This document shows positions 1 through 37,653 of a DNA stretch of 64,000 nt, piece after piece. Below the pieces are notes generated by a model that ran no database searches, was not told the origin of the DNA, and was given only the letters and a program-made list of their open reading frames with translations. The DNA lies in IMG/VR virus record IMGVR_UViG_3300027736_000027, positions 1 to 64,000 of that record; one strand, 5' to 3'. How positions within the stretch are numbered: the first letter of the stretch is position 1; each line of letters starts with the position of its first letter. The stretch is from a virus. Both the position numbers and the translations under genes were made by a program.

Positions 1-3000
1 GTTGAGGTACTTGGGCATAAGCCGCTAGTTGAAGATGTGGTATGAATTAGGGTTATTGTGCCAGCACCAGATGTATATGGATTAAACATTGATCCAGTAA
101 TACCAAAACCGCTCCATGAACCTGGAAAACTTGCATAGGCATTTAAATTAACAGCTGCACCTGTATTACACATATCTGGTAATTGACTGGATATGGTTGA
201 CGGTACAAATATCTCAACCGTAACTGTTTTTGTTTGTTGTGAGGAACATGTAGCTGTGCCTATCACATATTGTATAAGGTTATTACCAATAGAACACAGT
301 GATGGAGTTAATACACCATTCAGGTTAAGGTACGGTGTTGTCATCCAACTACCTGTACTTGGTGCAACTGACATTTGTATAAGAGCATCTGAACTACATA
401 CTGGTCCAACCGGGGTAATGTTAGGTACCGGTGGATTAAGTACAGATACGGTAATGGTTCTGCTATCAGGACAAATTGTAGTGTTAGGTGTTGAACTTGT
501 ATTGTAAGTTAGTACATAACTGCCTGTACCCAAGCCAGCTGGGTTAAATGCGTTTTGACTAATACTCATACCCGACCAGGTACCCGTTGTATTTTGAACA
601 ATAGACATTAGGTTAAACTGATTATTGGTAACACACATATTAGGAACTACTCCAGTTAATGAAGCTGTATTATAGGTTGATGGAAAAATAGCAAAGGTGT
701 TTGTATTTACACAAGGTCCAACTTGAACCATATATCCAACAATACTACTTGATGGAGAAGATAGGGACGGCGTAACAATACCTAAACTACTAACAGCTGA
801 GTTATTAGACCAGGTCCCGCCAACTGGATTAGCCGCCAATACAAAAGAAGCTGTGTTATTACAAAATGGACCAGCCGATGTCATGGTAGGAATAACCGTA
901 TTTGTTACGGATATGTTTAATTGTGTACTTGATGGACAAACAGTAGGATTGGGCGTTGAACTTGTATTGTATGTAATATTATAAATGGCCGTGTTTAAAC
1001 CGGCTGGCGAAAAAGATCCGCTAGAGACTCCTGCACCGCTCCAAACGCCTGTAGTGTTTTGTACAATACCCATTAGGTTAACAGCAGAGCCTGTTACGCA
1101 TAGGTTGTTTATACTACCGGTTAAGGCTGAAGTGTTAAAATAAGAAACTTCGTAACTACCGGTATTAGAGGCTGCACAGGTACTGATTGAAATTGCATAG
1201 GTATAACTATTAACTCCGATTACGGTTGGCGATACTACTCCTAATGTACTTACACCAACTCCAGTAAATACTCCACCGGCTGGAGAAGCAATTATTTGAT
1301 ATGGTGAGCTGTTATTACATAGGTTTGGTATTAAAGATAGGGTCGGAGTAGGTGGATTGATTGCCCATAAGTTAAGTGTACGTGTCATTGGACAATTAAT
1401 CGCAGTTGGTGTGATCACAACTGAGTAAGTTATATTTGACTGAGTACCGACCGCAAGATTAGGTATAAGGATTGTTGACTGTTGAGTATTACCTGCTAAA
1501 AAGAGGTTAGGCGTCCAAGAGTAGGTGTATTGTGATAATGACGGTGGAATACTAAATACCACTCCAGCTGCAATACCGCCGCCTGGACATAGTGTCACTG
1601 ATGATGGACTTAGTGTTGGAGAAAACACATGAGTGAGTATGTTAAACGAAGTTGTGTATGCACATGAACCATCAAACACTCTTACCTGATAATTACCAGT
1701 TCCCATATTTCCAAACACATAACTATTTTGACCAGTTGGAGCCAGTGATGCGTTATAAGCAGGTGTATTATTGGAATTCCATACTGAATATGAATTAGCA
1801 CCTGGCGGAGAACCTGATGCAGGAGTTAAGTTAATAGTTCCACTGCCATTTGCCGAGTTTAAACAAACCGACGTAGTTAGTAATGATATACTGCCAGGCG
1901 GAGATGGTATTAGGGTGAATGAAGCAGCTTCGTTACAATTTTGTAGTGAAGTATAGGTTACGGTGTATACCGAAGCCTGTACTGGATTATTTACGGTGTA
2001 TCCCATTGCCACGCCTAATGGAGCAGAGATAGCGGTATTGTTAGTAGACCATTGAACACTATTACCGGTTACACTTAAATAGGCTTGAGCACCACAATAT
2101 GGTTTTAATAGATTTTGTATTTGCGGTGTACCGGTTCCTACTGAGATGGTTGCAGTTGCTGAGCCACAACCAGCATTTCCAAAACCAGTTATTGTTACAC
2201 TATACGTGCCAGGAAGCAGTCCACTTACTGTTGCTGAGGTACCCACTACTGCACTATTTGAATTTACCCAAGTATAGTTATATCCTGTGCCGCTACCGTT
2301 TCCTTGCACCGTGCCAGTTCCACTTGATCCGCCGGCACAACTTGTTCCTGAACCAATACCTGCAATGTTTACTAGAGTAGGCATGATTGTATTGGTTGCA
2401 ATATAAGAACAGCCCGACGGAGAGTTTAACTGAACTGTATACACTGCTCCTGCGATTACTGGACTTATGGTTAGTGTTGGAGCGGTACCTCCTGCATTTG
2501 CAGGAATTGTTCCTGTGATAGGAGCTATCCATTGATATGAAGAGTATCCTAATGGTGCAGCAATAATAGCTTGATTTGAACCAGCACAAAAACTAACAGG
2601 TCCTGCAATGTTTCCTCCAACCCCACCTAATCCCTGACCAACTAATTGACCACCACATCTTGCATCAAAGTAAGCAGTTCCATGATGTCCAGAATAAGAA
2701 CAATCAGAACACGTTACTACAATTCTAATACATTGACCAATGTAAGGAGTTAAATCAATATATTTTGTTTGCCAGTTAACCCATGAAACCCCACTTGTAA
2801 CTTGATAACCAGGAACTCCACTTTGACAACTTTGTCCAGAAGGAGTTAGGCTCACGTTAGCACAAGGTATTGGGATTAATGAACCTGTACAATTATACAT
2901 ATCAATTCTAAAAGCAGGTTGTCCGCAACACTCATGAACGCCATCCCAAGAACCTGCATAACAAAATTGAAATAAGGTATTTGAATTTGAAACTGGAAAT

Positions 3001-3683
3001 TGCGTCATAATTCGAGTCATCAAACCTGTTGGACAAGAGTTTTGTAGTCTTGCAACTCGGTTACCGCCAAGAGGCGAATTAGGTATTGAGACATTGTCAA
3101 TACTAAATCCTGGTGGATTAGCACAACTAGGTGCAGGTAGTATTGGAGTAGCTACAATAGAAAATTCAGGACTACCTGCATTCCAATTAGCAATAGGATT
3201 AGCAACACATCCAGCACCATATGTAGGATTTCCACAACAAATATTAGAAGTGTTTTGTCCACTTTGAATTGTCCATCCTAAAACAGAATTCATTCCACTA
3301 TAAGCTCCAGGTGCAGTAAGCTCAAAGTCTTCATTCACACAAGCATTACCAGGTGAATTAACTGAGTTAGGACCTCCAATCGGTCTGTTATTTGAATTGA
3401 CCGGTAGTAATGGTTTAATACCGTACTTTTGATTTACCCATGCTCTTTTTACAAGAGCAATATAGTTGATGTATTCTGAGCCAAAGACATTTCGTCTCAG
3501 CAACTCAACCCGCATAGAGGCTTCATCGAATCCTTGTAAGGAGTCTCCATAGTAACTTTTATAATCGGTTAAGGAGTTTTTAGAAAGATAGTCACGATTG
3601 TTTATGTATCGTTCTTTGGCTGGTGTTTGTGCAATTACCGTTAAGGTTAATAGTAATAGACAGTAGGTGATTAGTTTTTTCAT
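1..3683 (-). CDS. Large secreted Cys/Thr-rich repeat protein resembling Bacteroidota gliding-motility/T9SS-substrate adhesins (3' end outside window)
   Basis: Absent from the ORF track because it runs off the edge. ATG at 3683 gives MKKLITYCLLLLTLTVIAQ (signal peptide), CVNEDFE, SDCSYSGHHGTAYFDARC and repeated Ig-like units (GTWSG..V...F.PAGL..G...LTYNTSSTP). The same frame reads TITLIHTTSSTSGLCPSTS at the window start. Confidence 0.8.
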   Translation of the reverse strand, partial: MKKLITYCLLLLTLTVIAQTPAKERYINNRDYLSKNSLTDYKSYYGDSLQGFDEASMRVELLRRNVFGSEYINYIALVKRAWVNQKYGIKPLLPVNSNNRPIGGPNSVNSPGNACVNEDFELTAPGAYSGMNSVLGWTIQSGQNTSNICCGNPTYGAGCVANPIANWNAGSPEFSIVATPILPAPSCANPPGFSIDNVSIPNSPLGGNRVARLQNSCPTGLMTRIMTQFPVSNSNTLFQFCYAGSWDGVHECCGQPAFRIDMYNCTGSLIPIPCANVSLTPSGQSCQSGVPGYQVTSGVSWVNWQTKYIDLTPYIGQCIRIVVTCSDCSYSGHHGTAYFDARCGGQLVGQGLGGVGGNIAGPVSFCAGSNQAIIAAPLGYSSYQWIAPITGTIPANAGGTAPTLTISPVIAGAVYTVQLNSPSGCSYIATNTIMPTLVNIAGIGSGTSCAGGSSGTGTVQGNGSGTGYNYTWVNSNSAVVGTSATVSGLLPGTYSVTITGFGNAGCGSATATISVGTGTPQIQNLLKPYCGAQAYLSVTGNSVQWSTNNTAISAPLGVAMGYTVNNPVQASVYTVTYTSLQNCNEAASFTLIPSPPGSISLLTTSVCLNSANGSGTINLTPASGSPPGANSYSVWNSNNTPAYNASLAPTGQNSYVFGNMGTGNYQVRVFDGSCAYTTSFNILTHVFSPTLSPSSVTLCPGGGIAAGVVFSIPPSLSQYTYSWTPNLFLAGNTQQSTILIPNLAVGTQSNITYSVVITPTAINCPMTRTLNLWAINPPTPTLSLIPNLCNNSSPYQIIASPAGGVFTGVGVSTLGVVSPTVIGVNSYTYAISISTCAASNTGSYEVSYFNTSALTGSINNLCVTGSAVNLMGIVQNTTGVWSGAGVSSGSFSPAGLNTAIYNITYNTSSTPNPTVCPSSTQLNISVTNTVIPTMTSAGPFCNNTASFVLAANPVGGTWSNNSAVSSLGIVTPSLSSPSSSIVGYMVQVGPCVNTNTFAIFPSTYNTASLTGVVPNMCVTNNQFNLMSIVQNTTGTWSGMSISQNAFNPAGLGTGSYVLTYNTSSTPNTTICPDSRTITVSVLNPPVPNITPVGPVCSSDALIQMSVAPSTGSWMTTPYLNLNGVLTPSLCSIGNNLIQYVIGTATCSSQQTKTVTVEIFVPSTISSQLPDMCNTGAAVNLNAYASFPGSWSGFGITGSMFNPYTSGAGTITLIHTTSSTSGLCPSTS

Positions 3684-3792: not shown

Positions 3793-4380
3793 TCAGGTTA
3801 ATTTCCGACGGACTTTTGAATTTGGTCGAGAGTCTGAAACCTTTTTGCCTAACTGATTAAATCTTGACTGCACGTCTGATTTTAGGTTCATATACTTCTT
3901 ATCATTTGCCAATCCACGATATTCTTCCATTTCAGTATCTGAAGGAGCTTCGCCGTATTCAACTGTACCGTCTACTACTTGATTAAAAAGGTCAGGTAAA
4001 GGTAAAGTGATAGGTAACTCAGGAATATCAAGTTTATCATGAATACGAATTCCATAAGTTCCATAAGTTGCATCGTACATTGCATGAACAGTATATTCAC
4101 GAGCTGCTAAATCAACACTTATATCAAAATAGGTTTCATCATCCCTAGTTAATTCAGTTTGGATTTGATTAAGTACGTGATCAATCATTGCATTATCTAC
4201 TTCTCCATCGAAATCTTCCATTCTAGCTTCCGTATCTGCATCAGCAGCAAGCTCATCACGTTGAGCATCAGATAAATATCCAAAATTTCGAATTGGTTGA
4301 ACTCCTTTAAGTTTAGCACGTTTAGAACCCATTGATTCATTTACAAATTGCCCAAATCTTTTAACTATTTGATTTTTCAT
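3793..4380 (-). CDS. Hypothetical protein with capsid-targeting-like leader
   Basis: MKNQIVKRFGQFVNE leader; 195 aa. Confidence 0.75.
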   Translation of the reverse strand: MKNQIVKRFGQFVNESMGSKRAKLKGVQPIRNFGYLSDAQRDELAADADTEARMEDFDGEVDNAMIDHVLNQIQTELTRDDETYFDISVDLAAREYTVHAMYDATYGTYGIRIHDKLDIPELPITLPLPDLFNQVVDGTVEYGEAPSDTEMEEYRGLANDKKYMNLKSDVQSRFNQLGKKVSDSRPNSKVRRKLT

Positions 4381-4395
4381 TAGGTTAATTCTTTT

Positions 4396-4860
4396 TTAAT
4401 AATGTTGTTTAGCGTACATAGTTAATATCTTTGTTATGTGTTCTGGACTAGTACCGCGATGAGTATCACTAGATGAAACGGTTTGAGCTAGTTCATCTAT
4501 TGTCATGCTACCGTCATTCACAAACTCATCAACTATCTCTGCTGCGAGCTGGCTTCCAGGGGTAAAGTATTCGTCTTCTAAAATATGTAATAGCTTTTTT
4601 GGATTGTTACGGTAGTATGTTGGAATCCCTAACTGAGAGCCATGGTCAACATTCTTTTCTCTTGAATTTTTAGTACGCATTGCAATTTTTTTAAAGTGAT
4701 CTTTATCGTCATCAGTCAACTTATTAAACTCTGATTCAAAATCAACTGGTTCTGTGTGTTTACCTGTCATGCGGTTATGGGCAGTCCTTAATAAATTATG
4801 AACTGGATTATCTCCTTCGTTTATAAATTGTGTAAATCTTTTAACTATTTGCTTTTTCAT
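4396..4860 (-). CDS. Hypothetical protein with capsid-targeting-like leader
   Basis: Start re-called to MKKQIVKRFTQFINE (ATG 4860), paralogous to the neighbour's leader; GATAAATA at 4887-4894 (-) upstream. Confidence 0.75.
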   Translation of the reverse strand: MKKQIVKRFTQFINEGDNPVHNLLRTAHNRMTGKHTEPVDFESEFNKLTDDDKDHFKKIAMRTKNSREKNVDHGSQLGIPTYYRNNPKKLLHILEDEYFTPGSQLAAEIVDEFVNDGSMTIDELAQTVSSSDTHRGTSPEHITKILTMYAKQHY

Positions 4861-4931
4861 TAGTTTAATTCTTTTTTTAATAATGTTATTTATCTGGGTA
4901 TTCAGGTCAGAACTTAAAATATTGTGCATAT

Positions 4932-5912
4932 TTAGCTAAAGTAGATATTTCCATTAACCGTACAGTTATTCTGTTTAAGTTTTTGGTTAAAAATATTGTG
5001 AATTGACTTAAACAGCATACTATTAGTCGGTCCGGCCGCCGCAGCTTCACGATGTATATTATTAATAATTGTAGATCTTGACACATCAAGGTCTCCACCT
5101 ACTACTAAATTTTTTGGTAGTGTAGTAATGGTACTGCCATCTAACATTAAACTGCCGCTTATTGATAAATTATCTGGAAGAGCGGTAATGTGTCTGCAAC
5201 TGGTTAATTTTAAATCTCCAACTACTGATAAGTTTTCTGGTAATTTTTCTATAGCTGAATTTGATAAAAAAATTGATCTTTTAAATTTTGAATTTTCAGG
5301 TAACTCTTTAATTATACTTCCATTTGCTGTAAATATACCGTTTACTGTTAAATTATTTGGTAACTCTTTAATTTTTGAATATGATATTGTTAATGCTCCA
5401 CGTACAGAAAGATTATCAGGTAAACTTTCTAAACTAGTTCCGTATAACTCTAGATTAAACTGACTATTATTTGGTTCAATATAATTTTTTACACGTTTTG
5501 CATCATGCAATAAATTTTTAAACTGATCGACTGTATAGCTATCAACTACACCGATACTATTTAAGTGTATTAGTTCTTCAATATCAAAATTTATTGGATT
5601 CCAAGTATCCGCATTTTCAAAAATCTTTTCACTATCATTAATATAATCAGAAGAGAGTGTTTCTATTTCAGGATTCTTTTTAAATACTTCGCAAACTTCT
5701 TTTAAAATAGAGGTCACAGTTGAGTATGGATCAATTATTCTATTATCAATAAGTTTTTCAACTTTTTTAAATAACTCATCTGGTATTCGTAAGCGTTTAA
5801 GTGCTCTAAGAAATAATTTGAGTTTAACTGAATGTAACTTAATCATTTCATTTAACTGATCTGTATTTTTTATTGGATCTTTCCAACTTTCATATAGTTT
5901 AATATACTTCAT
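4932..5912 (-). CDS. Leucine-rich repeat protein (divergent, mostly 20-aa repeats)
   Basis: MKYIKLYESW leader; 6-7 repeats such as DLKLTSCRHITALPDNLSISG; retains LNSIGVVD cap motif. Confidence 0.85.
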   Translation of the reverse strand: MKYIKLYESWKDPIKNTDQLNEMIKLHSVKLKLFLRALKRLRIPDELFKKVEKLIDNRIIDPYSTVTSILKEVCEVFKKNPEIETLSSDYINDSEKIFENADTWNPINFDIEELIHLNSIGVVDSYTVDQFKNLLHDAKRVKNYIEPNNSQFNLELYGTSLESLPDNLSVRGALTISYSKIKELPNNLTVNGIFTANGSIIKELPENSKFKRSIFLSNSAIEKLPENLSVVGDLKLTSCRHITALPDNLSISGSLMLDGSTITTLPKNLVVGGDLDVSRSTIINNIHREAAAAGPTNSMLFKSIHNIFNQKLKQNNCTVNGNIYFS

Positions 5913-5917
5913 ATCAT

Positions 5918-6550
5918 TTATCTACAAATTTTGCCGTCTACCGATAAATCCTGAGGTAACTCGCCTAAGCTGGTACAATTATATAAGACTAATTCTCCAC
6001 CAACCGTTAGGCCAGCAGGTAAACTCTTTAGGGACCTACAACCATGTAGGCTTAAGCTGCCATTAACCTTTAATCCAGCAGGTAAACTCTTTAATCCGGC
6101 ACAGCCATATAGGCTTAAGTTTCCGGCAACATTTAAGCCGGCAGGTAAACTCTCTAAACTAAAGCAGTTAGATAAGTCTAAGCTTCCGCTAATTTTTAAT
6201 CCAGCAGGTAAACTCTCTAAGCTGGTACAAGCATATAATTGTAAGCTTCCTCCAACCACTAGGTCATCCGGTAAACTCTTTAAGCCCGTACAGTACTCTA
6301 AGTTTAAGTTTTCTCTAACCACTAACCCATTAGGTAAACTCGTCAAAAGGGCACATCCACCTAGGTTTAAGGATTCACCTTCGCACCAACCTTTAATATA
6401 GTTAATAATACGCTGTTCAGCATCCCTAAGTTTCTTTAGATCGGCTAATTCTTTATCTGAAACTACTCCTATCTCATGAAGCCCTTGAGCCTCAGCAAAG
6501 GTATCGGCTGTTATAGGGTTCCATGATTCATATAGTTTAATATACTTCAT
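5918..6550 (-). CDS. Leucine-rich repeat protein (7 x 21 aa)
   Basis: Leader + AQGLHEIGVVS cap + xLxLxxCxxLxSLPAGLxVxG repeats; 63-nt DNA period (aggtaaactc at 6017, 6080, 6143, 6206). Confidence 0.9.
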   Translation of the reverse strand: MKYIKLYESWNPITADTFAEAQGLHEIGVVSDKELADLKKLRDAEQRIINYIKGWCEGESLNLGGCALLTSLPNGLVVRENLNLEYCTGLKSLPDDLVVGGSLQLYACTSLESLPAGLKISGSLDLSNCFSLESLPAGLNVAGNLSLYGCAGLKSLPAGLKVNGSLSLHGCRSLKSLPAGLTVGGELVLYNCTSLGELPQDLSVDGKICR

Positions 6551-6555
6551 ATCAT

Positions 6556-7302
6556 TTATCTATAAATTTGACCTACTACGTTTAGGTCCTGCGGTAACTC
6601 GCCTAGGGCAGTACAGCCGTGTAAGTCTAAGTATCCGCGAACTTCTAGATCCGCAGGTAAACTCTTTAAACTCGTACAGCCCGTTAAGGATAGAACGCCG
6701 CCGATCTTTAAGCCAGCTGGTAAACTCTCTAGGTCAGTACAGTTATTTAAATTTAAGGTTGAATTAACTGTTAACCCAGCCGGTAAACGAGTTAGGGACG
6801 TACAGCCACTTGCGTGTATGGAGCCTCCAACCTTTAAACCTTGAGGTAACTCGCCTAATTTGGTACAGCCATTTAAATTTAAGTATGATCCAACCACTAG
6901 GTCATTAGGTAAACTCTCTAAGTTTGTACAAAAATTTAGTTCTAAGCCTCCGCTAATCACTAGACCAGCGGGTAGACTCCTTAAATTGGTACAACCGTTT
7001 GCGTATAGGTAGTCTTTGACCTTTAATCCAGCAGGTAAACTCTCTAAACTTGTACAACCATATAAGCCTAAGTTTCCGCCAACCTTTAAGCCATCCGGTA
7101 AACTCTTTAGCAAGGTACAGTCCCGTAAGTCTAGGCTCCCAACTCCAGAGTAGTGGAGAATCTCCCACTCAGTCGCCATAAGTTTCTCTAGCTGGGCTAA
7201 TTCCTGGTCAGAAACAATTCCTATTGAGTGTAGTTCTTGAGCCTCAGCAAAGGCCTCGTCTGACATGGGGTTCCAGTTTTCGTATAGTTTAAGATACTTC
7301 AT
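6556..7302 (-). CDS. Leucine-rich repeat protein (9 repeats)
   Basis: Same architecture as neighbours. Confidence 0.9.
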   Translation of the reverse strand: MKYLKLYENWNPMSDEAFAEAQELHSIGIVSDQELAQLEKLMATEWEILHYSGVGSLDLRDCTLLKSLPDGLKVGGNLGLYGCTSLESLPAGLKVKDYLYANGCTNLRSLPAGLVISGGLELNFCTNLESLPNDLVVGSYLNLNGCTKLGELPQGLKVGGSIHASGCTSLTRLPAGLTVNSTLNLNNCTDLESLPAGLKIGGVLSLTGCTSLKSLPADLEVRGYLDLHGCTALGELPQDLNVVGQIYR

Positions 7303-7323
7303 TAGGGTTATTTATTCAGAATA

Positions 7324-8169
7324 TTATGCCGATTTAATTATTTGAGATAGGGTATTTGCTCTATTTTTAACTTGACCAGCCCATTCAGAGTCCAACATTT
7401 CGGTTGAGGCCTTTTTATAATTATTGGATAAAATATACTTTAGAAAATTATTAAATTTAGATAAGCCGGCCTTTCCTAAATTAAATACCATTTCAGTTAA
7501 AACACCCTGTACTGATAATGGTAGTTTTGGCCAAACTGTTGAAATATTTACCGAACGGTCTTGTGATATTAAGGTCTGTGCATCGTTTTTTGCCTGGATT
7601 AAATCATTGTTTAATAGAGTAGATATTTGAGCATCAGTAAGCTTGGCTTTTCCAGCTTTAATTTTAACCGGATTTGCTCCAACACTTTTAAGTAGTACAC
7701 TTGAATCTTCTCGGTTTAGGTTAAAGCCAACTCCAATCGTTGGATTTTTTTTAGTATCTAAATACTTAATATATTTTTTACCTTCATGCTGAATTACCCG
7801 GTCTTTAATTGAACTAACCACCTGGTCAGTAGACGGCGGTGGAGCAACAAATGTCCCTAAGCTGTTTTGAACCTGGATATTAGCAATATGATTATCAATT
7901 TGAGTTTTATAGCTTTGGTCAAAAATACCAAGTTCACCATTAATTGCATCGCCGACACTCGCATAGGCCCAATCTTTAGTTTTAAAGCCTGAGTTTAAAG
8001 CCTGATTTACCTTATTCATTGTTAATACATCAGGTATTGATAAAATGGCCTTTGCTAAGTTAGGTTCGGTTGTTCCAAGACCAGCACAGGCAACCTGAAT
8101 TTCATTTGCTATTTGATCAGAGGTTAAGGCCTCATTGATCCAACCTTCAAATACTTGTAAATACTTCAT
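7324..8169 (-). CDS. GH24/T4-type lysozyme with N-terminal annexin-like repeat
   Basis: IQHEGKKYIKYLDTKKNPTIGVGFNL (E-x8-D-x5-T triad), MVFNLG, EMLDSEWAGQVKNRA; N-terminal AGLGTTE...INGELG. Confidence 0.85.
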   Translation of the reverse strand: MKYLQVFEGWINEALTSDQIANEIQVACAGLGTTEPNLAKAILSIPDVLTMNKVNQALNSGFKTKDWAYASVGDAINGELGIFDQSYKTQIDNHIANIQVQNSLGTFVAPPPSTDQVVSSIKDRVIQHEGKKYIKYLDTKKNPTIGVGFNLNREDSSVLLKSVGANPVKIKAGKAKLTDAQISTLLNNDLIQAKNDAQTLISQDRSVNISTVWPKLPLSVQGVLTEMVFNLGKAGLSKFNNFLKYILSNNYKKASTEMLDSEWAGQVKNRANTLSQIIKSA

Positions 8170-8174
8170 ATCAG

Positions 8175-8915
8175 TTATCTATAAATTTTGCCGCCAATCT
8201 TTAAGCCGGCAGGTAAACTCTCTAGGCCAAGGCAACCACCTAAGGTTAAGTCGCCATCAACAACTAGATCAGCAGGTAGACTCTTTAAGCCCGTACACCG
8301 ATTTAGGCTTAAGGTTCCACCGACCTTTAAGCCAGCTGGTAAACTCTTTAGCTGATAACAGTCAGTTAAGTATAAGTTTCCTCTAACCTCTAGACCAGCC
8401 GATAAACTCTCTAAACTCGTACAGCCTCTTAAGTCATCGCCAACCACTAAGCCAGCCGGTAAACTCGTTAAGCCCGTGCAGTTTGCTAAGTCTAATTGGC
8501 CACCAACCACCAGGCCAGCAGGTAAACTCGTTAAGGAAGAGCAGCCGAATAAAGTTAAGTCATCTTCAACCTTTAAGTCAGCCGGTAAACTCGTTAAGCT
8601 TGTACAGCCAGTTAGGTCTAAGTAGTCTCCAACAACTAGGCCAGCCGGTAAACTCCTTAAGCCAGTACAGTAATTTAGGTCTAAGAAGCCATCGACCTTT
8701 AAGCCAGCCGGTAAACCCGTTAATAAGGCACAGAAACTAAGATCTAAGTTGCCAAATCCTTTAAAATTAAGTATTTGGTGTTGAGCCTGCTTTAAACTAA
8801 CCAAGTCCTCTAATTCCTGACTTGAAACAACTCCTATTTGGTGCAGTTCCTGAGCTGACTCTAACTCTTGATCAGACAGAGGGTTCCATGATTCATATAG
8901 TTGCAGATACTTCAT
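8175..8915 (-). CDS. Leucine-rich repeat protein (9 repeats, one shortened)
   Basis: Same architecture. Confidence 0.9.
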   Translation of the reverse strand: MKYLQLYESWNPLSDQELESAQELHQIGVVSSQELEDLVSLKQAQHQILNFKGFGNLDLSFCALLTGLPAGLKVDGFLDLNYCTGLRSLPAGLVVGDYLDLTGCTSLTSLPADLKVEDDLTLFGCSSLTSLPAGLVVGGQLDLANCTGLTSLPAGLVVGDDLRGCTSLESLSAGLEVRGNLYLTDCYQLKSLPAGLKVGGTLSLNRCTGLKSLPADLVVDGDLTLGGCLGLESLPAGLKIGGKIYR

Positions 8916-8920
8916 TAAGG

Positions 8921-9973
8921 TTATTTATAAATTTTGGCTCCAACCTTTAGGTCCTCGGGTAACTCGGCTAAGCTTGGACACGATCGTATGTATAGACTTG
9001 CAGAAACCTCTAGACCAGCAGGTAAACTCTTTAGTGAGGTACAGCAGTCGAGGTCTAAGTTGCCGTCGACCTTGAATCCAACCGGCAAACTTTCTAGGGC
9101 CGTACAGCCTTCTAAGTAGACTCCGCTTTCGACCTTTAAGTCAGCCGGTAAACTCTTTATACCGGTACAGCCTTCCATGTCAAGTTGACCGCCAACCACT
9201 AGGCCAGCAGGTAGACTCTCCAAGCCCGTACACCTTTTTATGTCTAGACCTCCGCCAATCTTTAAGCCATCAGGTAAACTCCTTAAGCCCGTACAGCCCC
9301 TTAAGTCTAATTCTCCCAGCACCTCTAAATCTGCCGGTATACTCTCTAAGCTCGTACAGCCATTTAGCTCTAATCGGCCATTGATCTTTAAGCCAGCAGG
9401 TAAACTCTTTAGTAGAGTACAGTAGTCTAGGATTAGGCTGCCAACCCCGTTATATTTAATAATACGCTGTTCAGCATCTCTAAGGATCTTTAGCTCGGCT
9501 AATTCCTGGCTTGACACAACTCCTATTTGGTGCAGCTCCTGAGCACTGGCAAGATCCTCAACGGATACTGTGTTCCAATTTTCATATAGTTTCGGCCCGC
9601 CTATTATTCGGCCGGCTACCTTTAGGTCTTGAGGTAAACTCTTTAAACCAGTACAGCCGTATAAGTATAGGTCACCGCCAACCTCTAGGCCAGCCGGTAA
9701 ACTCTTTAAACCCGTACAGGCAGTTAAGCCTAAATTTGCTCCAACTTTTAGGCCCTGAGGTAAACCAGTTAACAGAATAGTGTAACTTAAGTTTAGGTCC
9801 CCAACTCCTTTATAGTCGAGTATCCGTTTTGAACTGATTTTTAAATCATTTAGATCGGCTAATTCCTGATCAGAAATAACCCCTATCTTGTGCAGTTTCC
9901 TAGTCTCAGCAAAGTCCTTATCAGATAGAGGGTTCCAGTCCTCAAATTTTTCGAATAGTTTAATATACTTCAT
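8921..9973 (-). CDS. Leucine-rich repeat protein, fusion of two array units (3+8 repeats)
   Basis: Internal second leader/cap KLYENWNTVSVEDLASAQELHQIGVVS. Confidence 0.9.
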   Translation of the reverse strand: MKYIKLFEKFEDWNPLSDKDFAETRKLHKIGVISDQELADLNDLKISSKRILDYKGVGDLNLSYTILLTGLPQGLKVGANLGLTACTGLKSLPAGLEVGGDLYLYGCTGLKSLPQDLKVAGRIIGGPKLYENWNTVSVEDLASAQELHQIGVVSSQELAELKILRDAEQRIIKYNGVGSLILDYCTLLKSLPAGLKINGRLELNGCTSLESIPADLEVLGELDLRGCTGLRSLPDGLKIGGGLDIKRCTGLESLPAGLVVGGQLDMEGCTGIKSLPADLKVESGVYLEGCTALESLPVGFKVDGNLDLDCCTSLKSLPAGLEVSASLYIRSCPSLAELPEDLKVGAKIYK

Positions 9974-9978
9974 ATCAT

Positions 9979-10725
9979 TTATCTATAAATTTGGCCGCCG
10001 ACCTTTAAGTCAGTCGGTAAACTCTCTAGGCGGGTACCACCCAAGAGTAAGTCTCTTTTAACCACTAGCCCAGCCGGCAAACTTGTTAAGCCGGTACAAC
10101 CATATAAGTCTAAGTTTCCGCCAACCTTTAGGCCAGCAGGTAAACTCCTTAAACCTGTGCAGTTTGCTAAGGTTAGGTTGCCAACCGCTATGTCAGCCGG
10201 TACACTCTCTAAGCGGGTACAGCCATCTAGGCTTAAGGTGTTGCCAACCTCTAGGCCAGCAGATAAATTCTTTAGGCTGGTACAGCCGTATAGGCTTAAG
10301 TTTCGGTCAACGATTAATCCAGTAGGTAAACTCTCTAGGGACGTACAGCCAATTAAGGTTAAGTCTCTGACCCTTAAGTTAGCCGGTATACTGGTTAGGG
10401 CCGTACAGCCACCTAATGCTAAGTATCCAATAACCTGTAGATCAGCAGGTAGACTCCTTAAGCCTGTACACTTATTTAGGTTTAACATGCCGTTAACCTT
10501 TAAGCCAGCCGGTAAACTCTTTAGTAGAGTACAGCTGTCTAGGTTTAGGTTGCCAACTCCAGGGTATTGAAGAATTTCCCGTTCAACATGCCTAAGTCTT
10601 CTGAGCTCGCTCAATTCCTTGTCGGACACAACTCCTATTTCATGAAGATCCTGAACATCTGAATAGGCCTCATCGGATACTGTTTTCCAGTCTTCAAATT
10701 TTTCATATAGTTTAATATACTTCAT
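9979..10725 (-). CDS. Leucine-rich repeat protein (9 repeats)
   Basis: Same architecture. Confidence 0.9.
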   Translation of the reverse strand: MKYIKLYEKFEDWKTVSDEAYSDVQDLHEIGVVSDKELSELRRLRHVEREILQYPGVGNLNLDSCTLLKSLPAGLKVNGMLNLNKCTGLRSLPADLQVIGYLALGGCTALTSIPANLRVRDLTLIGCTSLESLPTGLIVDRNLSLYGCTSLKNLSAGLEVGNTLSLDGCTRLESVPADIAVGNLTLANCTGLRSLPAGLKVGGNLDLYGCTGLTSLPAGLVVKRDLLLGGTRLESLPTDLKVGGQIYR

Positions 10726-10730
10726 ATACT

Positions 10731-11234
10731 TTATCTATAAATTCTACGGCCGACCTTTATGTCTTGAGGTAACTCGCCTAAGCTCGTACAGCGGAATAGG
10801 TTTAAGTCGCCGTCAACCACTAGCCCAGCCGGTAAACTTGTTAGCGAGGTACACCCGTTTAAGAATAGGTCTCTGCCAACGATTAAGCCCTGAGGTAGAC
10901 TCTTTAAGCGGGTACAGCCATATAGGCTTAAGCTGCCGCTAACAGTTAACTCATCAGGTAAACTCTCTAAGCTGTTACACCAATTTAGGTTTAAGTCTCC
11001 GCCAACCTCTAGGCCAGCCGGTAAACTTTTTAGCAGGGTGGAGTCAGCTAGGTCTAGGCTGCCAACTCCAGAGTAGTGCAGAATCGCTTGTTCAGCCCTC
11101 ATCAGTCTCTTTATCTCTCTAAATTCCTGATCTGAAACGACTCCTATTCCATGAAGCTCCTGAGCACTGGCAAGGTCCTCAACCGATACGGTTTTCCAGT
11201 CCTCAAATTTTTCATATAGTTTAATGTATTTCAT
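10731..11234 (-). CDS. Leucine-rich repeat protein (5 repeats)
   Basis: Same architecture. Confidence 0.9.
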   Translation of the reverse strand: MKYIKLYEKFEDWKTVSVEDLASAQELHGIGVVSDQEFREIKRLMRAEQAILHYSGVGSLDLADSTLLKSLPAGLEVGGDLNLNWCNSLESLPDELTVSGSLSLYGCTRLKSLPQGLIVGRDLFLNGCTSLTSLPAGLVVDGDLNLFRCTSLGELPQDIKVGRRIYR

Positions 11235-11241
11235 TATCTTT

Positions 11242-11820
11242 CTATCTTAAAATTTGGCCGCCTACCCTTAGGTCTTGAGGTAACTCGGCTAGGGAGGTAC
11301 AGTCTCTTAAATTTAAGTCGCCCATAACCACTAGTCCAGCAGGTAAACTCGTTAGTGAGGTACAGCCGCCTAGCGATAAAAAGCCTAACACTTTTAACCC
11401 AGCCGGTAGACTCCTTAAGCCCGTACACCCGTTTGCATAAAAGTCTCCCATCACTTTGAATCCAGCAGGTAAACTCCTTAAGCCTGTGCAGTCAACAATA
11501 TTTAAACCTCCTCCAGGTTTTAAACCAGCAGGTAAACTCTCTAATCCAGTACAGCCGCTTAGAGTTAAGTAGCCAGTAACGGTTAAGTCGGCAGGTAAAT
11601 GTGTTAGACCCGTGCAGCCTCTTAAATTAGCGGACCCATTAACCTTTAATCCAGCGGGTAAACTCTTTAGCAGGGTACAGCCATCTAAGTTTAAGAAGCT
11701 CGACCCGAATTCAACACAGTTACGAAGTTGTTCCTCAGCCGCTTTTAGTTTTTTAAGCTCTGCACCTTCCACAGCTTCGGTAATTAAGTTAAATGAACGA
11801 TATGGGGTTAGGTACTTCAT
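11242..11820 (-). CDS. Leucine-rich repeat protein (7 repeats)
   Basis: MKYLTPYRSFNLITE leader; same repeats. Confidence 0.9.
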   Translation of the reverse strand: MKYLTPYRSFNLITEAVEGAELKKLKAAEEQLRNCVEFGSSFLNLDGCTLLKSLPAGLKVNGSANLRGCTGLTHLPADLTVTGYLTLSGCTGLESLPAGLKPGGGLNIVDCTGLRSLPAGFKVMGDFYANGCTGLRSLPAGLKVLGFLSLGGCTSLTSLPAGLVVMGDLNLRDCTSLAELPQDLRVGGQILR

Positions 11821-11824
11821 GGTT

Positions 11825-12778
11825 TTAAAAAGAATAACTACGATTTACCATAACGTTTTCTTCAGCAACCGGATCATATATAGAAAATTCAATTTTACCA
11901 CCATGATAAAGTTGATAATCGACGTTATAAGTTGGATTAATTTCTTTTACTTTTATGTCTGCCACAAACGCAACATTATTTAAATACTCTCGAGGCTCTT
12001 CTTCAGGAATAAAAGAGTCTGCAGCCTGTGACCATGCATCGCTTAATATTTCGTCAAATGTATCTTCAGAAATATCAAGATTTTCTTTTAATAGCCTACG
12101 ATATCTGCGTGATACAGTTTCGGTTACTGAGTCTGTAAGTAATGGGCTGGTTGGGTCTACTATAAAATAAAAGCCGGCAGCCGCAAACTCGCCGCGGTTC
12201 ATTGGTATTTCGGTACCATCAATACTCGCTCCACCTGGAAATAGTGTAATTAGGCTAAGTGCCTTTTTGCCATTGGTTAGTGTACCTAGTTCAGCAGTAA
12301 TTAAATTTACTCGGCTGGTTGGTTTTCTTTTACCTGGGGCTATTTTAACAGCCTCTTTTCTTCCATCGGGCATTGTGTAATCCTGCATCATAGCTACTTC
12401 CTCTGGCCCGGCCTTTGCTACACCCATTTCTCCAACCTTACCGCCATTAGCGGCTAACCATTTTACTCGGCCACTGGCCTCTTCGGTTGGTGGAGTATTA
12501 AGTAATTTTTTAGCAACCTGTCTAAGGTCTACACCGGTTTTGAATAATGAACCTGGTTTTGCCCCATCTAAGTGTCTTTCCGCAATATGACCGGCTGTCT
12601 CTTCAGAAAAAAGTAGGACAAAATTATCTGCTTCAATTAGGTCTGACCCGGTTGCTTTTACTTTACCTTTTAAAAATTCATTTTTGTCTATTAGAGCCTG
12701 GATCTCTTGTGAAATATCTGCGGCTTCAGTATGTGATTCATTGATATATTGACTAAACAATTTAATATGTTTCGGCAT
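11825..12778 (-). CDS. Leader-bearing protein, possible RNase-toxin-like domain
   Basis: MPKHIKLFSQYINE; HIAERH...PGSLF...LITLFPG; GATAAATA at 12797-12804 (-). Confidence 0.65.
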   Translation of the reverse strand: MPKHIKLFSQYINESHTEAADISQEIQALIDKNEFLKGKVKATGSDLIEADNFVLLFSEETAGHIAERHLDGAKPGSLFKTGVDLRQVAKKLLNTPPTEEASGRVKWLAANGGKVGEMGVAKAGPEEVAMMQDYTMPDGRKEAVKIAPGKRKPTSRVNLITAELGTLTNGKKALSLITLFPGGASIDGTEIPMNRGEFAAAGFYFIVDPTSPLLTDSVTETVSRRYRRLLKENLDISEDTFDEILSDAWSQAADSFIPEEEPREYLNNVAFVADIKVKEINPTYNVDYQLYHGGKIEFSIYDPVAEENVMVNRSYSF

Positions 12779-13007: not shown

Positions 13008-13249
13008 ACTAGGGAGTACCTGGTACCTGTATAGAACAGACTCTAACCGGACCCGGCCCAGTGGGACTAGGGAGTCCCGGCCAGCCCGGACCAGCCGGCC
13101 CAGGAGCAATCTGCCCAGGTGGGACTAGGGAGTAAACCGGACCCTTGCCCCGGCCACCGGACCCCAACCTGACCAGGTGGGACTAGGGAGTACCCCGGCC
13201 GGGCTCTGTCCTGTGGGTACCAACCCGGCTTGCTCAAAGACTAGGGAGT
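13008..13249 (+). repeat. Five ACTAGGGAGT motifs at exact 58-bp period with dissimilar GC-rich spacers
   Basis: Motif starts at 13008, 13066, 13124, 13182, 13240; first four extend to GGGACTAGGGAGT. Confidence 0.95.
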
Positions 13250-13389
13250 ACGGTGGCCCTCGACTCCGCGGCTCTACCGGATTCCCAGGGGTCTCGAGAG
13301 GGCCCGGCAGTTGGACACTAGTAGCAGGCTGCGGGACACGGGCAGGCCAGGCTTCCCGACAGGTAGCCGAGGCCCAGATAGATAAAACC

Positions 13390-14025
13390 ATGGAAGAAGA
13401 AGAAATAGGGTCCCTGAAGCCTTTTCCGTCAGGGGAGTTGATGTATAAGAAGGATGCAGCCAAGTTTGCTGGGGTCTCGTTGAAGACACTGGAGGGTTAT
13501 GTAGCTAAGGGTGTAATAAACAAGTGGAAGAATATTGTAAACGGCCGGACCTACTATGACAAGCAGGAGCTCTTGAAGATGATAGGCAGTCGCTTGCCGC
13601 AGAAGAGGCTCGTGATCGCCTACTGCCGGGCAGCACCGTTCCCGGATCGAGGAGCGGCCGGGGTTTCGGTACTGGCCAGGTTACAGGCACAGACGGACCG
13701 GGTACTCGGATATTGTACCGCAGCTGGGGTCCGGGTTGACGAGATAATCCAAGATACGGGTAAGGCTGGTAGCCTAGCTGGCCGATCAGGTCTCGATAGG
13801 CTCTTTGAGACCGTGCTTCGCAAGCAGGTAAGTATGGTTATAGTTGAGACTCCGGACCGGCTGGCCAGGTTTGCAGGTGCCGAGATTCTAGAGAGATTCC
13901 TGACCTGGCACGGTGTTGAACTGCATATAATACAGAAAGGATTACATCTAGAAGAGTACAGGGAAGAATTAAAAGAGGATCTATCTTATCTTATATTAGA
14001 GTCAAGAGCCCTGATTGGGGATTAA
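13390..14025 (+). CDS. IS607-family TnpA-like serine recombinase (MerR-like HTH + resolvase domain), catalytic Ser apparently replaced by Ala
   Basis: KKDAAKFAGVSLKTLEGY HTH; IAYCRAA in place of YARVS; GRSGLDRL; ETPDRLARF; EELKEDL. Start re-called to ATG 13390; no tnpB adjacent. Confidence 0.85.
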   Translation: MEEEEIGSLKPFPSGELMYKKDAAKFAGVSLKTLEGYVAKGVINKWKNIVNGRTYYDKQELLKMIGSRLPQKRLVIAYCRAAPFPDRGAAGVSVLARLQAQTDRVLGYCTAAGVRVDEIIQDTGKAGSLAGRSGLDRLFETVLRKQVSMVIVETPDRLARFAGAEILERFLTWHGVELHIIQKGLHLEEYREELKEDLSYLILESRALIGD

Positions 14026-33602: not shown

Positions 33603-34076
33603 ATGAAACACATTAAACTATTTGAAGGTTTCTCTAAAGAAGAGAATATGGCTAAGTCATATACATTAGAATTCCTGCCTAAATTCTGGGAGGATCTGGG
33701 TATTAAACGACCTGCTTTTGGTGCTGAGGCTGGTCATAGTCTTCTCAATAGAGACAATACTATAAAATTAACGGTAGGGAATGATCCAACTATTATTTAT
33801 AGAAGAGATACTCGTATGTATGATGATAAAGGTCGAAAGGCAGGTAGAGATGATGATAGTATATGGTATTCGATTAATTTATACAAAACTCCCAATGGCT
33901 TTATTTCCAAATCTGATAATAATATGCTAAAATATTCTCTTGATTTTCAAGAGGACAAAGATGCTAAGATAGGTGGTAATATGAATTTGATACCAATAGG
34001 TGTAGGAGAATTCGCATCAGAAGAAGTCGGTAGTATGGATAATAGGGAATTTTTTAAGATAGTAGCTGTTGACTAA
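33603..34076 (+). CDS. Hypothetical protein with MKHIKLFE leader
   Basis: Leader shared with next three genes. Confidence 0.75.
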   Translation: MKHIKLFEGFSKEENMAKSYTLEFLPKFWEDLGIKRPAFGAEAGHSLLNRDNTIKLTVGNDPTIIYRRDTRMYDDKGRKAGRDDDSIWYSINLYKTPNGFISKSDNNMLKYSLDFQEDKDAKIGGNMNLIPIGVGEFASEEVGSMDNREFFKIVAVD

Positions 34077-34089
34077 AAATAAATACAAT

Positions 34090-34560
34090 ATGAAACACAT
34101 TAAACTATTTGAAGGTTTCTCTAGAGAAGAGAATAGCTTAATATTAGAGTTTGATTATGAAAAACATAAACAAGAAGATCTAGACATAATTGATAGATTT
34201 ATTATCTCTATTAATCCAGGTACGGCTGATGTTCTTGAAGTGGAAGGACTTTTAGCAAGGACTAAACACCATAAGTTAGTATTTAAACCGTTAACCAATA
34301 CCAAGATATTTAAAAGTTCTGATTCTAGAAAACTACTCAAAGATGAGGAAATTAATTTGAATCAGGCTAGTCGAAACACAGATAACGCGGTAAACCATCT
34401 AAACACCAATATCAACAACTGGTTAGCTATCAAAACTGATTATGATAATTTAGTTCATGAAATACGGGTTGGTAAAATTATAGATGTTGCAGGATATGGA
34501 ACTTCTACTATCGGTGGTTTAAACTGTATATTTAATACTATAAAATTTGATAAAATATAA
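34090..34560 (+). CDS. Hypothetical protein with MKHIKLFE leader
   Basis: Start re-called to ATG 34090. Confidence 0.75.
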   Translation: MKHIKLFEGFSREENSLILEFDYEKHKQEDLDIIDRFIISINPGTADVLEVEGLLARTKHHKLVFKPLTNTKIFKSSDSRKLLKDEEINLNQASRNTDNAVNHLNTNINNWLAIKTDYDNLVHEIRVGKIIDVAGYGTSTIGGLNCIFNTIKFDKI

Positions 34561-34573
34561 AATAAATACAATT

Positions 34574-35155
34574 ATGAAACACATTAAACTATTTGAAGGC
34601 TTTGTTGATGATCACGAAAGAATCTATAATAAGATTAGCCATTCACCAAGTAAGATAACTATAGAGTTAACTGAAAAGGGCAAAGACCTTATAGAAGGCC
34701 TACTACACGGTTGGGTGGAATCGTCAAGACCTGCTATTCAAACCGGCGGTTATAAACCACATACTATTATAGATATCAAAGATGCGGTAACAGTCTCAGC
34801 AAGTTATGGTGATGATGATAATAGTCGTCGTACTGTAGTGATTGGTCAGATTGAAATTAGAGGTAACTATGATAGTTGGGAGGGTATCTCACCGTTAACT
34901 AAATTATTACCAGATGAAAGTGGTAAAGAATACACAACGGGGTATTTCCAAATCTTTGTTAAATATTACCCGTTAGAAGATGAAGCTAGGACAGGAGCGA
35001 GTATAAGTATTCTGCAAGGTCTTAGGGCCAGTGAGAAGGATCAATATAAAGAACTAAAGAGAGGAAAATACCCTAAATACAATTGTGACTTTGATAAGGT
35101 TGAACCCGGCGAAGTAGATGATAGAGGTTACTTTAAGATAGTAGATATAAAATAA
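34574..35155 (+). CDS. Hypothetical protein with MKHIKLFE leader
   Basis: Start re-called to ATG 34574. Confidence 0.75.
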   Translation: MKHIKLFEGFVDDHERIYNKISHSPSKITIELTEKGKDLIEGLLHGWVESSRPAIQTGGYKPHTIIDIKDAVTVSASYGDDDNSRRTVVIGQIEIRGNYDSWEGISPLTKLLPDESGKEYTTGYFQIFVKYYPLEDEARTGASISILQGLRASEKDQYKELKRGKYPKYNCDFDKVEPGEVDDRGYFKIVDIK

Positions 35156-35169
35156 AATAAAGGATAATT

Positions 35170-35949
35170 ATGAAACACATTAAACTATTTGAAAGTTTCT
35201 CTGAAGAGTCAGGGTCAAGTCCAATTGAGGATTTTTATAAAAAGTATTATCCATCATCTTTAACGGCATCGCTAGACCCAAACTCCCAAGAAGCAAAGGA
35301 TCTACTGCTATATATTGACCTAAATTTAGGTCGACTAAGATCATCCGATGACACTGAGTTTTTACAAATACAAAAGAAATCTGGCTGGGGAGATATATTT
35401 CCAACCTATACAGAAATATTGAAAACTGATGATGCAGAACTTACTAAACTGGTTGATAACATTTATAAAAATGAAATTGCAGCCGTTAAGTCAATTTATA
35501 ATAACAAAAGCGATACGCAATTAACTGAAAGTTTTGATTTATCAAATGATAGCTGGAGAAATTGGGCTATTAGTAAAACTAAAAATCTGACATATGATGA
35601 TTTAGATAGTCATGAACAATCTTTTGTTGACCAAATATCTGATTTTATTAATGATACCTATTCTTATAAATTTCAAGAGTATAATGTTAATAGATATTCT
35701 AACGCGCCGCCCGCTGGGTTTAATAAACAATTGTTAAGGGTTGAAAATGGGCTAAGCCGAAAAGATATCGTTAATTTATCTGAAGATCTTGATACACGGT
35801 TTAATAAAGATAAATTTCTAACAATAGATGAATCTGGAACTCATTTTATAAAACTCGAACAAATTCTTGGAGATTACTATAAGTTGATATTAGACCCGCT
35901 TTTTATAAAAAAATATGAAAAAGAAGCCAAAGACTTTTATCGTAACTAA
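35170..35949 (+). CDS. Hypothetical protein with MKHIKLFE leader
   Basis: 259 aa. Confidence 0.75.
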   Translation: MKHIKLFESFSEESGSSPIEDFYKKYYPSSLTASLDPNSQEAKDLLLYIDLNLGRLRSSDDTEFLQIQKKSGWGDIFPTYTEILKTDDAELTKLVDNIYKNEIAAVKSIYNNKSDTQLTESFDLSNDSWRNWAISKTKNLTYDDLDSHEQSFVDQISDFINDTYSYKFQEYNVNRYSNAPPAGFNKQLLRVENGLSRKDIVNLSEDLDTRFNKDKFLTIDESGTHFIKLEQILGDYYKLILDPLFIKKYEKEAKDFYRN

Positions 35950-36640: not shown

Positions 36641-36988
36641 ATGACAAATAGAATAATTAAAGATTTTAGTGGCTGGAACCACATTACTGAAACCAGTGAT
36701 ATGGCTGATACTGCACCAGTTGCAGCCCCGGCCACTACTACTGGAACCACTGGAACCACTACACCGACTACACCAACCGGTACAGCTGCAACTAATGGAT
36801 CAGCTGGAACCTCTGGAACCGCTGGAACGGGTGGAACCTCTGCACCCGCTGCAACCTCTGCACCCGCTGCAACTAATGGATCAGCTGGAACTGCTGGAAC
36901 CTCTGCACCCACTGGTGTTGTTTATAATGGTGGAGCCCCGCCGGCTCAAACCCCGGCTCCTGCACCATACAGTCTACTTAGACAGTAA
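36641..36988 (+). CDS. Low-complexity Gly/Thr/Ala/Pro protein with leader
   Basis: MTNRIIKDFSGWNHITE then GTSGTAGTGGTSAPAATS repeats. Confidence 0.75.
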   Translation: MTNRIIKDFSGWNHITETSDMADTAPVAAPATTTGTTGTTTPTTPTGTAATNGSAGTSGTAGTGGTSAPAATSAPAATNGSAGTAGTSAPTGVVYNGGAPPAQTPAPAPYSLLRQ

Positions 36989-37032
36989 GTTAAAGAAGAC
37001 TAATTAAAGAGTTTATAAAAAAGAAGATAAAT

Positions 37033-37638: not shown

Positions 37639-37653
37639 AAAATAATAAATAAT

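Follow-up and report, generated by a model that had tools for sequence, protein, structure and literature searches.

The internal proteins of T-even phages form a diverse set in which the capsid-targeting sequence (CTS), which is conserved, is the only shared part (PMC3012670). The CTS of T4 is MKTYQEFIAE; the prohead protease cuts it once, and any protein fused to it gets packaged (PMC8442874). Such sequences are 10–20 residues long in T4, where Alt is cleaved at ITE-6 and LTE-619 (PMC5694885). The T4 internal proteins are highly basic (PMC8442874) and their repertoire includes anti-restriction proteins (PMC3012670, PMC8442874, PMC5694885). Here we describe a row of eight leucine-rich repeat (LRR) genes in the first 64 kb (64,000 nt, ‘the window’) of the 110,950-bp IMG/VR virus record IMGVR_UViG_3300027736_000027 (completeness 41% by CheckV). 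Their products share with many other proteins of the record a short N-terminal leader that looks like a T4-type capsid-targeting and cleavage tag. A literature search turned up no account of LRR arrays in phages or of LRR proteins as cargo of the head.

Open reading frame (ORF) calling identified eight minus-strand LRR genes between window positions 4932 and 11820 (LRR0 to LRR7, Table 1), and Tandem Repeats Finder detected 63-nt periods throughout the array. A first-pass annotation, made from the letters of the window, had described a tandem row of eight LRR genes here; the eight genes were confirmed, but the row is interrupted by a leader-tagged gene that encodes a lysozyme and not an LRR protein. 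Spacers along the row, from the gene at 4932 to the gene at 11825 (lysozyme and the 11825 gene included), are 5, 5, 21, 5, 5, 5, 5, 7 and 4 nt; the spacing of 4–7 nt noted earlier holds for most of them, with the exception of the 21-nt gap. Counts anchored on the LP motif came to 7, 9, 9, 11, 9, 5 and 7 canonical 21-aa repeats for LRR1 to LRR7, a total of 57. Together with the degenerate repeats of LRR0 this number fits the earlier estimate of ~63 repeats with 5–11 per protein.

The repeat consensus is x-L-x-L-x-x-C-T-x-L-x-S-L-P-A-G-L-x-V-x-G. Framework columns L2, L4, C7, L10, L13, P14, L17 and V19 have an entropy of 0.1–0.75 bits, while strand positions 1, 3 and 5 reach 3.0–3.4 bits, the maximum of all columns (position 20 is next, with 2.9). 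Column entropy therefore bears out the near-constant framework and variable strand positions reported in the first-pass annotation. Most members have a cap AQELHxIGVVS... and an end (K/Q/R)-I-(Y/L/C)-R, the latter being the last half-repeat x-I-x-R; the proteins stop right after it and contain no further Pfam domain. The leader, cap and end had been ascribed to most members, and this stands, with two departures: LRR0 lacks the cap and the Cys ladder, and LRR7 has no cap and a different leader. The Pfam family LRR_EndoS scored above the cut-off in three members.

An AlphaFold2 model of LRR2 (248 aa) was built from a 28-sequence alignment and had a mean predicted local distance difference test score (pLDDT) of 93.9 and a predicted template modelling score of 0.88. 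Residues 1–5 (pLDDT <50) lie outside the fold, with a leader helix modelled at residues 2–9; two cap helices lead into a regular solenoid, whose short strands fall at repeat positions 2–3 and 18–19. The top matches of LRR2 in Foldseek and in a profile search of PDB sequences were all LRR domains. The best structural matches were the Vibrio polar-flagellar-motor LRR protein 8z5u, RPP1 (7crb), Roq1, a Bacteroides ovatus protein (4fs7), XopL (4fcg) and SspH1; InlJ was absent from the PDB profile matches and from the Foldseek matches listed. By their repeats and the modelled fold the array members are LRR-superfamily solenoids of the short bacterial type, with Cys at the Asn-ladder position. The earlier suggestion of LRR solenoid binders with the most variable residues on the beta-strand face is supported by the modelled fold and by the column entropy.

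A related amphipathic leader starts ~29 of the 131 non-overlapping ORFs of the 111-kb record, in comparison with 0.6% of internal windows. Several sub-types can be distinguished: MK(Y/H)(I/L)KL(F/Y)E.(F/W), ..IVKRF.QF(V/I)NE(S/G),.NRI(I/V)KDF..W..I(T/H)E and ..SF..F(L/I)..(N/T)ES. The first-pass annotation had taken the leader as a feature of the array. It is indeed present on the LRR genes, but it is not LRR-specific, being shared with about 20 non-LRR genes; among their products are the lysozyme, an M23-peptidase/lysozyme and an ATP-grasp enzyme, besides many proteins that belong to no known family. The leader is absent from DnaK, from the terminase and baseplate proteins and from most small genes of the early module, as well as from genes of replication, repair and packaging (the start of the ligase fits the loosest leader pattern but was left out of the 29). 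Since the leader groups differ at synonymous sites, the leader is conserved at the protein level. The motif [L/I/V]-x-E with Glu at residue 6–17 occurs in 29 of the 29 leaders and in 17% of internal 18-residue windows, a difference that is partly circular, as the patterns used for leader selection contained Glu.

Three observations concern the tagged genes elsewhere in the window. At 33603–35949 there is a tandem family of four paralogues with leaders of the MKHIKLFE(G/S)F form, and at 36641–38952 one of three paralogues with.NRI(I/V)KDF..W leaders; no Pfam or PHROG family was found in the members scanned. The tagged ATP-grasp enzyme at 61893–63020 is YheC/D-like (PF14398, E 2e-55) and would be an unusual candidate for virion cargo.

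The LRR4 gene joins two LRR units and retains a relic leader, KLYENW, at the joint. In the LRR4 model two separate cap-plus-solenoid units are connected by a linker with pLDDT <50 at residues 128–132. The KLYENW motif is kept in all fused LRR4 homologues seen. Such retention would fit a working processing site; alternatively, it could stem from a recent fusion.

Comparison of repeats with each other showed that synonymous sites are saturated (proportion of synonymous differences 0.5–0.78), so that the ratio of nonsynonymous to synonymous substitution rates (dN/dS) between repeats has no power. Nucleotide identity of repeats is 0.619 within a gene and 0.617 between genes; there is therefore no concerted evolution. 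By this saturation the repeats are ancient. We estimated dN/dS for orthologues by the Nei–Gojobori method from 23 non-independent pairs, all with the window as reference. Whole-gene values were 0.20–0.73 for LRR genes, 0.06–0.26 for five flanking genes and 0.15–0.39 for the lysozyme. By position, dN/dS was 0.13 in the framework, 0.42 at other variable positions (bootstrap confidence interval, CI, 0.31–0.57) and 0.74 at strand positions 1, 3, 5 and 6 (95% CI 0.46–1.25), with 1.05 at position 3. The strand face is thus the fastest-evolving part of the protein, near-neutral on a strongly constrained scaffold, whose framework is under purifying selection. The ratio at strand positions is higher than at other variable positions but not above 1. 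Synonymous divergence of the same orthologues also differed between codon classes: 0.08 in framework codons, 0.14–0.16 in other repeat codons and 0.24 in leader plus cap.

The coincidence of the highest entropy and the top orthologue dN/dS on the strand face could be read as the mark of an actively diversifying system similar to antibodies or to variable lymphocyte receptors (VLRs), in which programmed mutagenesis or cassette assembly would be aimed at these positions. Several results contradict this. No reverse transcriptase (PF00078) was found in the incomplete 111-kb fragment by a search whose controls were positive; the repeats are synonymous-saturated, and those of one gene resemble each other no more than they do those of other genes; and the strand dN/dS does not exceed 1. 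Strand positions, besides, vary in all families of LRR proteins. When four lake runs were mapped to the window, the 40 listed variants (too few, and possibly mixed with paralogue mapping) were spread over many repeat positions and showed no preference for 1, 3 and 5. Diversification of the antibody or VLR type, the strong form of the ‘antibody-like binder library’ of the first-pass annotation, is largely refuted; we consider it extremely improbable.

Array content does differ between strains, as a comparison across relatives demonstrated. DNA of relatives was taken from metagenome contigs of several lake samples (L073–L091), with flanking proteins 90–98% identical. The most stable member is LRR0 (92–94% identical in L080, L084, L086 and L088). 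Other members come and go. In L080 an LRR5-like gene adjoins LRR1 and LRR0, and LRR4, LRR3, the lysozyme gene and LRR2 are missing; L086 has neither LRR1 nor the two tagged genes beyond LRR0. An additional short LRR5-like gene is present in L075, and an LRR2-like gene upstream of the lysozyme gene in L091. LRR3 is truncated to 143 aa in L088. The second unit of LRR4 is a separate gene in L073, L079 and L081; in L073, where it has its own leader, it stands with LRR6, an extra LRR6-like gene and LRR3. The LRR7-type leader MKYLTPYRSFNLITE heads a 405–418-aa non-LRR protein in L083 and L085, which makes LRR7 a chimera. The slot between the array and a conserved island with an IS607-like recombinase gene is filled in relatives with differing sets of other leader-tagged genes. 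Among protein homologues from metagenomes the repeat number is 3–9, and the LRR4 fusion joint is linked to different second halves. Strains vary in that genes are gained or lost, fused or split, or truncated, and in that cassettes are exchanged. In this respect the locus resembles, by analogy, the hyperplastic internal-protein loci of T-even phages. Alternative joints were also seen in lake runs (e.g. 8405->6115 in three runs, at 90% likeness); they may stem from relatives or repeats and were not relied on.

The large terminase (TerL) encoded in the record matches T4 gp17 (E 3e-44) as well as PHROG terminase families. Its nearest cultured relatives, at ~31–32% identity, are Sphingomonas phage PAU, Tenacibaculum phage PTm1 and T4-like cyanophages, and near-identical DNA is present in many freshwater and lake metagenomes of 2017–2025. 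By its terminase and its occurrence in freshwater, this is an uncultured jumbo phage from freshwater that belongs to the T4 terminase supergroup. Bacteroidota would be tentative candidates for its host. Megablast of the DNA against phage records gave no match, and neither did a single-protein scan of viral contigs.

We propose the following explanation. The region belongs to a hyperplastic locus made up of cassettes, in a jumbo phage of the T4 superfamily; almost all genes of the locus start with a short amphipathic leader whose end is [L/I/V]-x-E. If it works like the T4 CTS, this leader would take the protein to the prohead core, after which the prohead protease would cut it off. Eight of the cassettes encode small, mostly acidic single-domain LRR solenoids with a helical cap, 5–11 repeats of 21 residues and an IYR half-repeat end; their exposed strand residues (repeat positions 1, 3, 5 and 6) vary between paralogues. 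Ejected into the host together with DNA, each LRR protein could bind a different host protein, plausibly a target of defence or takeover. The repertoire shifts between strains by duplication, loss, fusion or fission, change of repeat number and recombination at the shared leader, with no programmed hypermutation. That the LRR proteins are packaged in the head, processed by a protease and ejected towards host targets is, in our estimate, about an even chance. The first-pass annotation had already suggested proteins ‘packaged and injected’, which is reasonable given the likeness of the leader to a capsid-targeting and cleavage tag of T4 type; its further suggestion that they neutralise host defence proteins is at this point pure conjecture.

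In a bolder form of the proposal the head would be loaded with dozens of tagged proteins, including strain-specific LRR ‘effectors’. The prohead protease would free them from the tags, and the two units of the fused gene also from one another, before they are injected, each to bind a different immune sensor or takeover target, and the cassettes would set host range. Related arrays of 7–23 genes in other huge-phage lineages suggest that this might be a general strategy of large phages. We regard this extended version as rather unlikely. If true, phages would have their own equivalent of the repertoires of LRR effectors that type III secretion systems deliver. Should the tag prove to be a capsid-targeting signal, the phage would have an unusually large and modular protein cargo, and a new class would be added to the injected proteins of phages, the LRR scaffolds. 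They would also be candidate anti-defence binders and a natural, compact and evolvable binder scaffold, and the cargo of uncultured jumbo phages would become readable from sequence.

In addition to the circularity of the Glu motif, the following observations weigh against head packaging. A profile search found no PF03420 prohead protease in this fragment or in three related fragments, and no gp23-type capsid gene (PF07068) in the same four, which are all just 14–46% complete; the same search did find PF03420, a prohead protease of T4 type, in the cultured TerL relative PTm1, which makes such a protease plausible here. (No such leader was seen in the structural region of PTm1, which is uninformative for the role of the leader.) The LRR arrays of other phage lineages have a family-specific N-terminus, not seen on adjoining non-LRR genes. 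Six of the eight LRR proteins are acidic, with isoelectric points of 4.4–6.2, and LRR7 reaches 8.1. The T4-late-promoter-like sequence ATAAATA occurs upstream of 10 of 29 tagged genes and 15 of 102 others (p = 0.03), a weak enrichment. Finally, with strand dN/dS not above 1, an arms race is not demonstrated.

Most junctions between 5913 and 11241 read ..ATT TAT AGA TAA ATG AT ATG... In these, TATAGATAAAT arises from the spacer together with the codons for Y, R and stop, and so overlaps the Arg-stop codons; an exact TATAAATA, which is T4 late-promoter-like, stands at two junctions. A constraint at the DNA level could contribute to the conserved ‘IYR’ end.

Acidic LRR proteins might instead act in the infected cell as host-takeover or anti-defence binders and never be packaged, in which case the leader would be a tag for DnaK/Hsp70, an element of translation initiation or stability, or a recombination handle. 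The phage does encode its own DnaK/Hsp70 (window 44041–45909), whose nearest relatives, at 60–68% identity, are the DnaK proteins of published huge phages of 460–735 kb. The leader, with basic residues around a hydrophobic/aromatic core, is presumably similar to an Hsp70-binding peptide. Action within the cell is also favored by the acidity of the LRR proteins, by the presence of the tag on the ATP-grasp enzyme, no obvious virion cargo, and by contigs of a metatranscriptome library matching several LRR genes at 99–100% (DNA carry-over is possible). Yet in its length, its position and the Glu at its end the leader agrees with the CTS of T4 and the cleavage site there; it is carried by cell-wall hydrolases typical of virion-borne entry enzymes; genes of replication, repair and packaging do without it; and its conservation is at the protein level. 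We therefore hold a purely intracellular role to be unlikely.

The leader, with or without the helical cap, might also be a docking peptide that attaches interchangeable LRR heads to the exterior of the virion (fibres, whiskers or head decoration), where they would be alternative host-recognition adhesins. A precedent is known from Goslar virions, in which a shared N-terminal module is followed by LRR/beta-helix or carbohydrate-binding domains, with a proposed role in host recognition (bioRxiv 10.64898/2026.04.21.720040). The array adjoins a signal-peptide protein of >1,227 aa, giant fibre proteins are encoded in the fragment, and turnover from strain to strain is typical of receptor-binding genes as well. 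Against surface docking, the LRR proteins are acidic monomeric solenoids of 167–350 aa, with a single buried Cys in each repeat and neither a trimerisation nor a fibre domain. The leader is shared by the lysozyme, the peptidase, the ATP-grasp enzyme and many small proteins; a protease-type site ends it, and a relic copy is kept inside the LRR4 fusion. An exterior location of the LRR proteins thus seems decidedly unlikely, and we return to head packaging as the preferred reading.

Table 1. Genes and features of the LRR array and its flanks (positions in the window)
Feature	Position	Strand	Description
Two leader-tagged genes (..IVKRF.QF(V/I)NE..), one flank	3793..4860	-	both absent from relative L086
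LRR0	4932..5912	-	326 aa; leader MKYIKLYE; about 5-7 degenerate 20-21-aa repeats; GC 28%
LRR1	5918..6550	-	210 aa; leader, cap, 7 repeats; C-terminal KICR
LRR2	6556..7302	-	248 aa; leader, cap, 9 repeats; C-terminal QIYR; structure modelled
Lysozyme (GH24/phage lysozyme domain), leader-tagged, within array	7324..8169	-	PF00959, 28.8 bits
LRR3	8175..8915	-	246 aa, 9 repeats
LRR4	8921..9973	-	350 aa; 3-repeat unit fused to 8-repeat unit
Relic internal leader KLYENW, LRR4 residues 128-133	9575..9592	-	linker predicted disordered
LRR5	9979..10725	-	248 aa, 9 repeats
LRR6	10731..11234	-	167 aa, 5 repeats; many orthologues in lake metagenomes
LRR7	11242..11820	-	192 aa, 7 repeats; no cap; differing leader MKYLTPYRSFNLITE
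Leader-tagged protein of no known family, flanks array	11825..12778	-	317 aa; slot filled by other leader-tagged cassettes in relatives

The lysozyme within the array also matches endolysin, tail-lysozyme and internal-virion-lysozyme PHROGs. GC content is 40–46% in the canonical LRR genes (5918–11820) and 28–35% in LRR0 and the flanking tagged genes. On the LRR0 side, an internal Met 23 codons into the listed ORF at 4396–4929 would give a leader of the typical kind, MKKQIVKRF.QFINE; translation probably starts at this Met, at 4860. The cassette locus is bordered by the >1,227-aa protein (window 3–3683), which is open at the window edge and has a Bacteroidota-style signal peptide; it is 98% conserved in L084, and in L088 a 59%-identical protein of 1,549 aa takes its place. 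At the other edge is a GC-rich island (13125–14025) with the IS607-like serine-recombinase gene. The island is found at the same place in L077, L085 and L090 (98%, 86% and 86% protein identity) and, because of this conservation, is a fixed feature of the lineage and was not inserted recently; the hyperplastic region may end here. Elsewhere the record encodes a baseplate wedge protein, tail-fibre proteins, a glycosyltransferase, DNA ligase and the M23-peptidase/lysozyme.

The 55-aa leader-plus-cap module had 10 representatives among 1.84 billion proteins, and with so few it is lineage-specific; no clue to its function came from them. The repeat type itself was found in many other viral contigs, as 7–11 consecutive small LRR genes with N-terminus MEKETLKNIFDFLE... 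and a G-x-I-Y-R end. In contigs of other huge-phage lineages (L006, L019, L036, L039 and L046) arrays of 7–11 LRR genes start with MEKETLKNIFDFLE.. and end with FIKGKIYR; in L019 five tandem DNA-methyltransferase-like paralogues lie upstream of the LRR array. The largest array seen, at L027:335-10489 (IMGVR_UViG_3300034012_003212, 260 kb), has 23 consecutive LRR genes of 108–173 aa with a conserved N-terminus of another kind, ..CSQEALDSFGSL... From these sequences LRR arrays seem widespread in huge phages.

Several described systems share parts of this picture. Bacterial DUF6745-LRR proteins (Anatilimnocola, other Planctomycetota, and metagenome-assembled genomes of Chloroflexota and Acidobacteriota) have the same 21-residue Cys-type repeat, with 35–45% identity over the repeats. 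They carry their own C-terminal DUF6745 and have no leader, cap or IYR end; no match to PF20530 (DUF6745) was found in any window protein. The LRRs of the plant TIR-NLR proteins RPP1 (7crb) and Roq1 (7jlv) and of Vibrio 8z5u were the best profile and fold matches (E 9e-20 and 2e-17, Foldseek ranks 1–2). They have a similarly short C/N-x-x-L-x-x-L-P repeat, a likeness of scaffold only; the phage proteins have no TIR or NB-ARC domains and no flagellar context, and their cap and IYR end differ. Lamprey VLRs and the targets of diversity-generating retroelements likewise combine a fixed scaffold with variable residues on the binding face. Here, in contrast, no assembly or mutagenesis machinery was found in the fragment, and the diversity is old and of the germ line, with ordinary recombination turning it over.

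Type III effector LRRs (XopL 4fcg, SspH1 4nkh, YopM 1g9u) are structural matches and, moreover, small bacterial-type solenoids delivered to bind host proteins. The phage proteins differ in having no NEL/E3 ligase domain and no type III secretion signal, and the proposed route of delivery is the phage head and tail. The ejection or inner-body proteins of phiKZ-like phages (SPN3US gp53/gp54) provide a case of paralogous head cargo with conserved, shared N-termini, cut after Glu in a three-residue motif (PMC5694885); most of their propeptides exceed 100 residues, cleavage is at A/S/G-x-E, and cargo of the LRR type has not been described for them. From the T-even internal proteins (IPI, IPII, IPIII, Alt) the proposed cargo would differ in being a multigene LRR family, mostly acidic instead of basic, with several leader sub-types and ~29 tagged genes in 111 kb; no gp21-type protease was found in the 41%-complete fragment. 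Shared with the T-even loci is the organization: a short leader ending in (L/I)-x-E on unrelated proteins, clustered cassettes whose content varies between close relatives, and a terminase of the T4 type.

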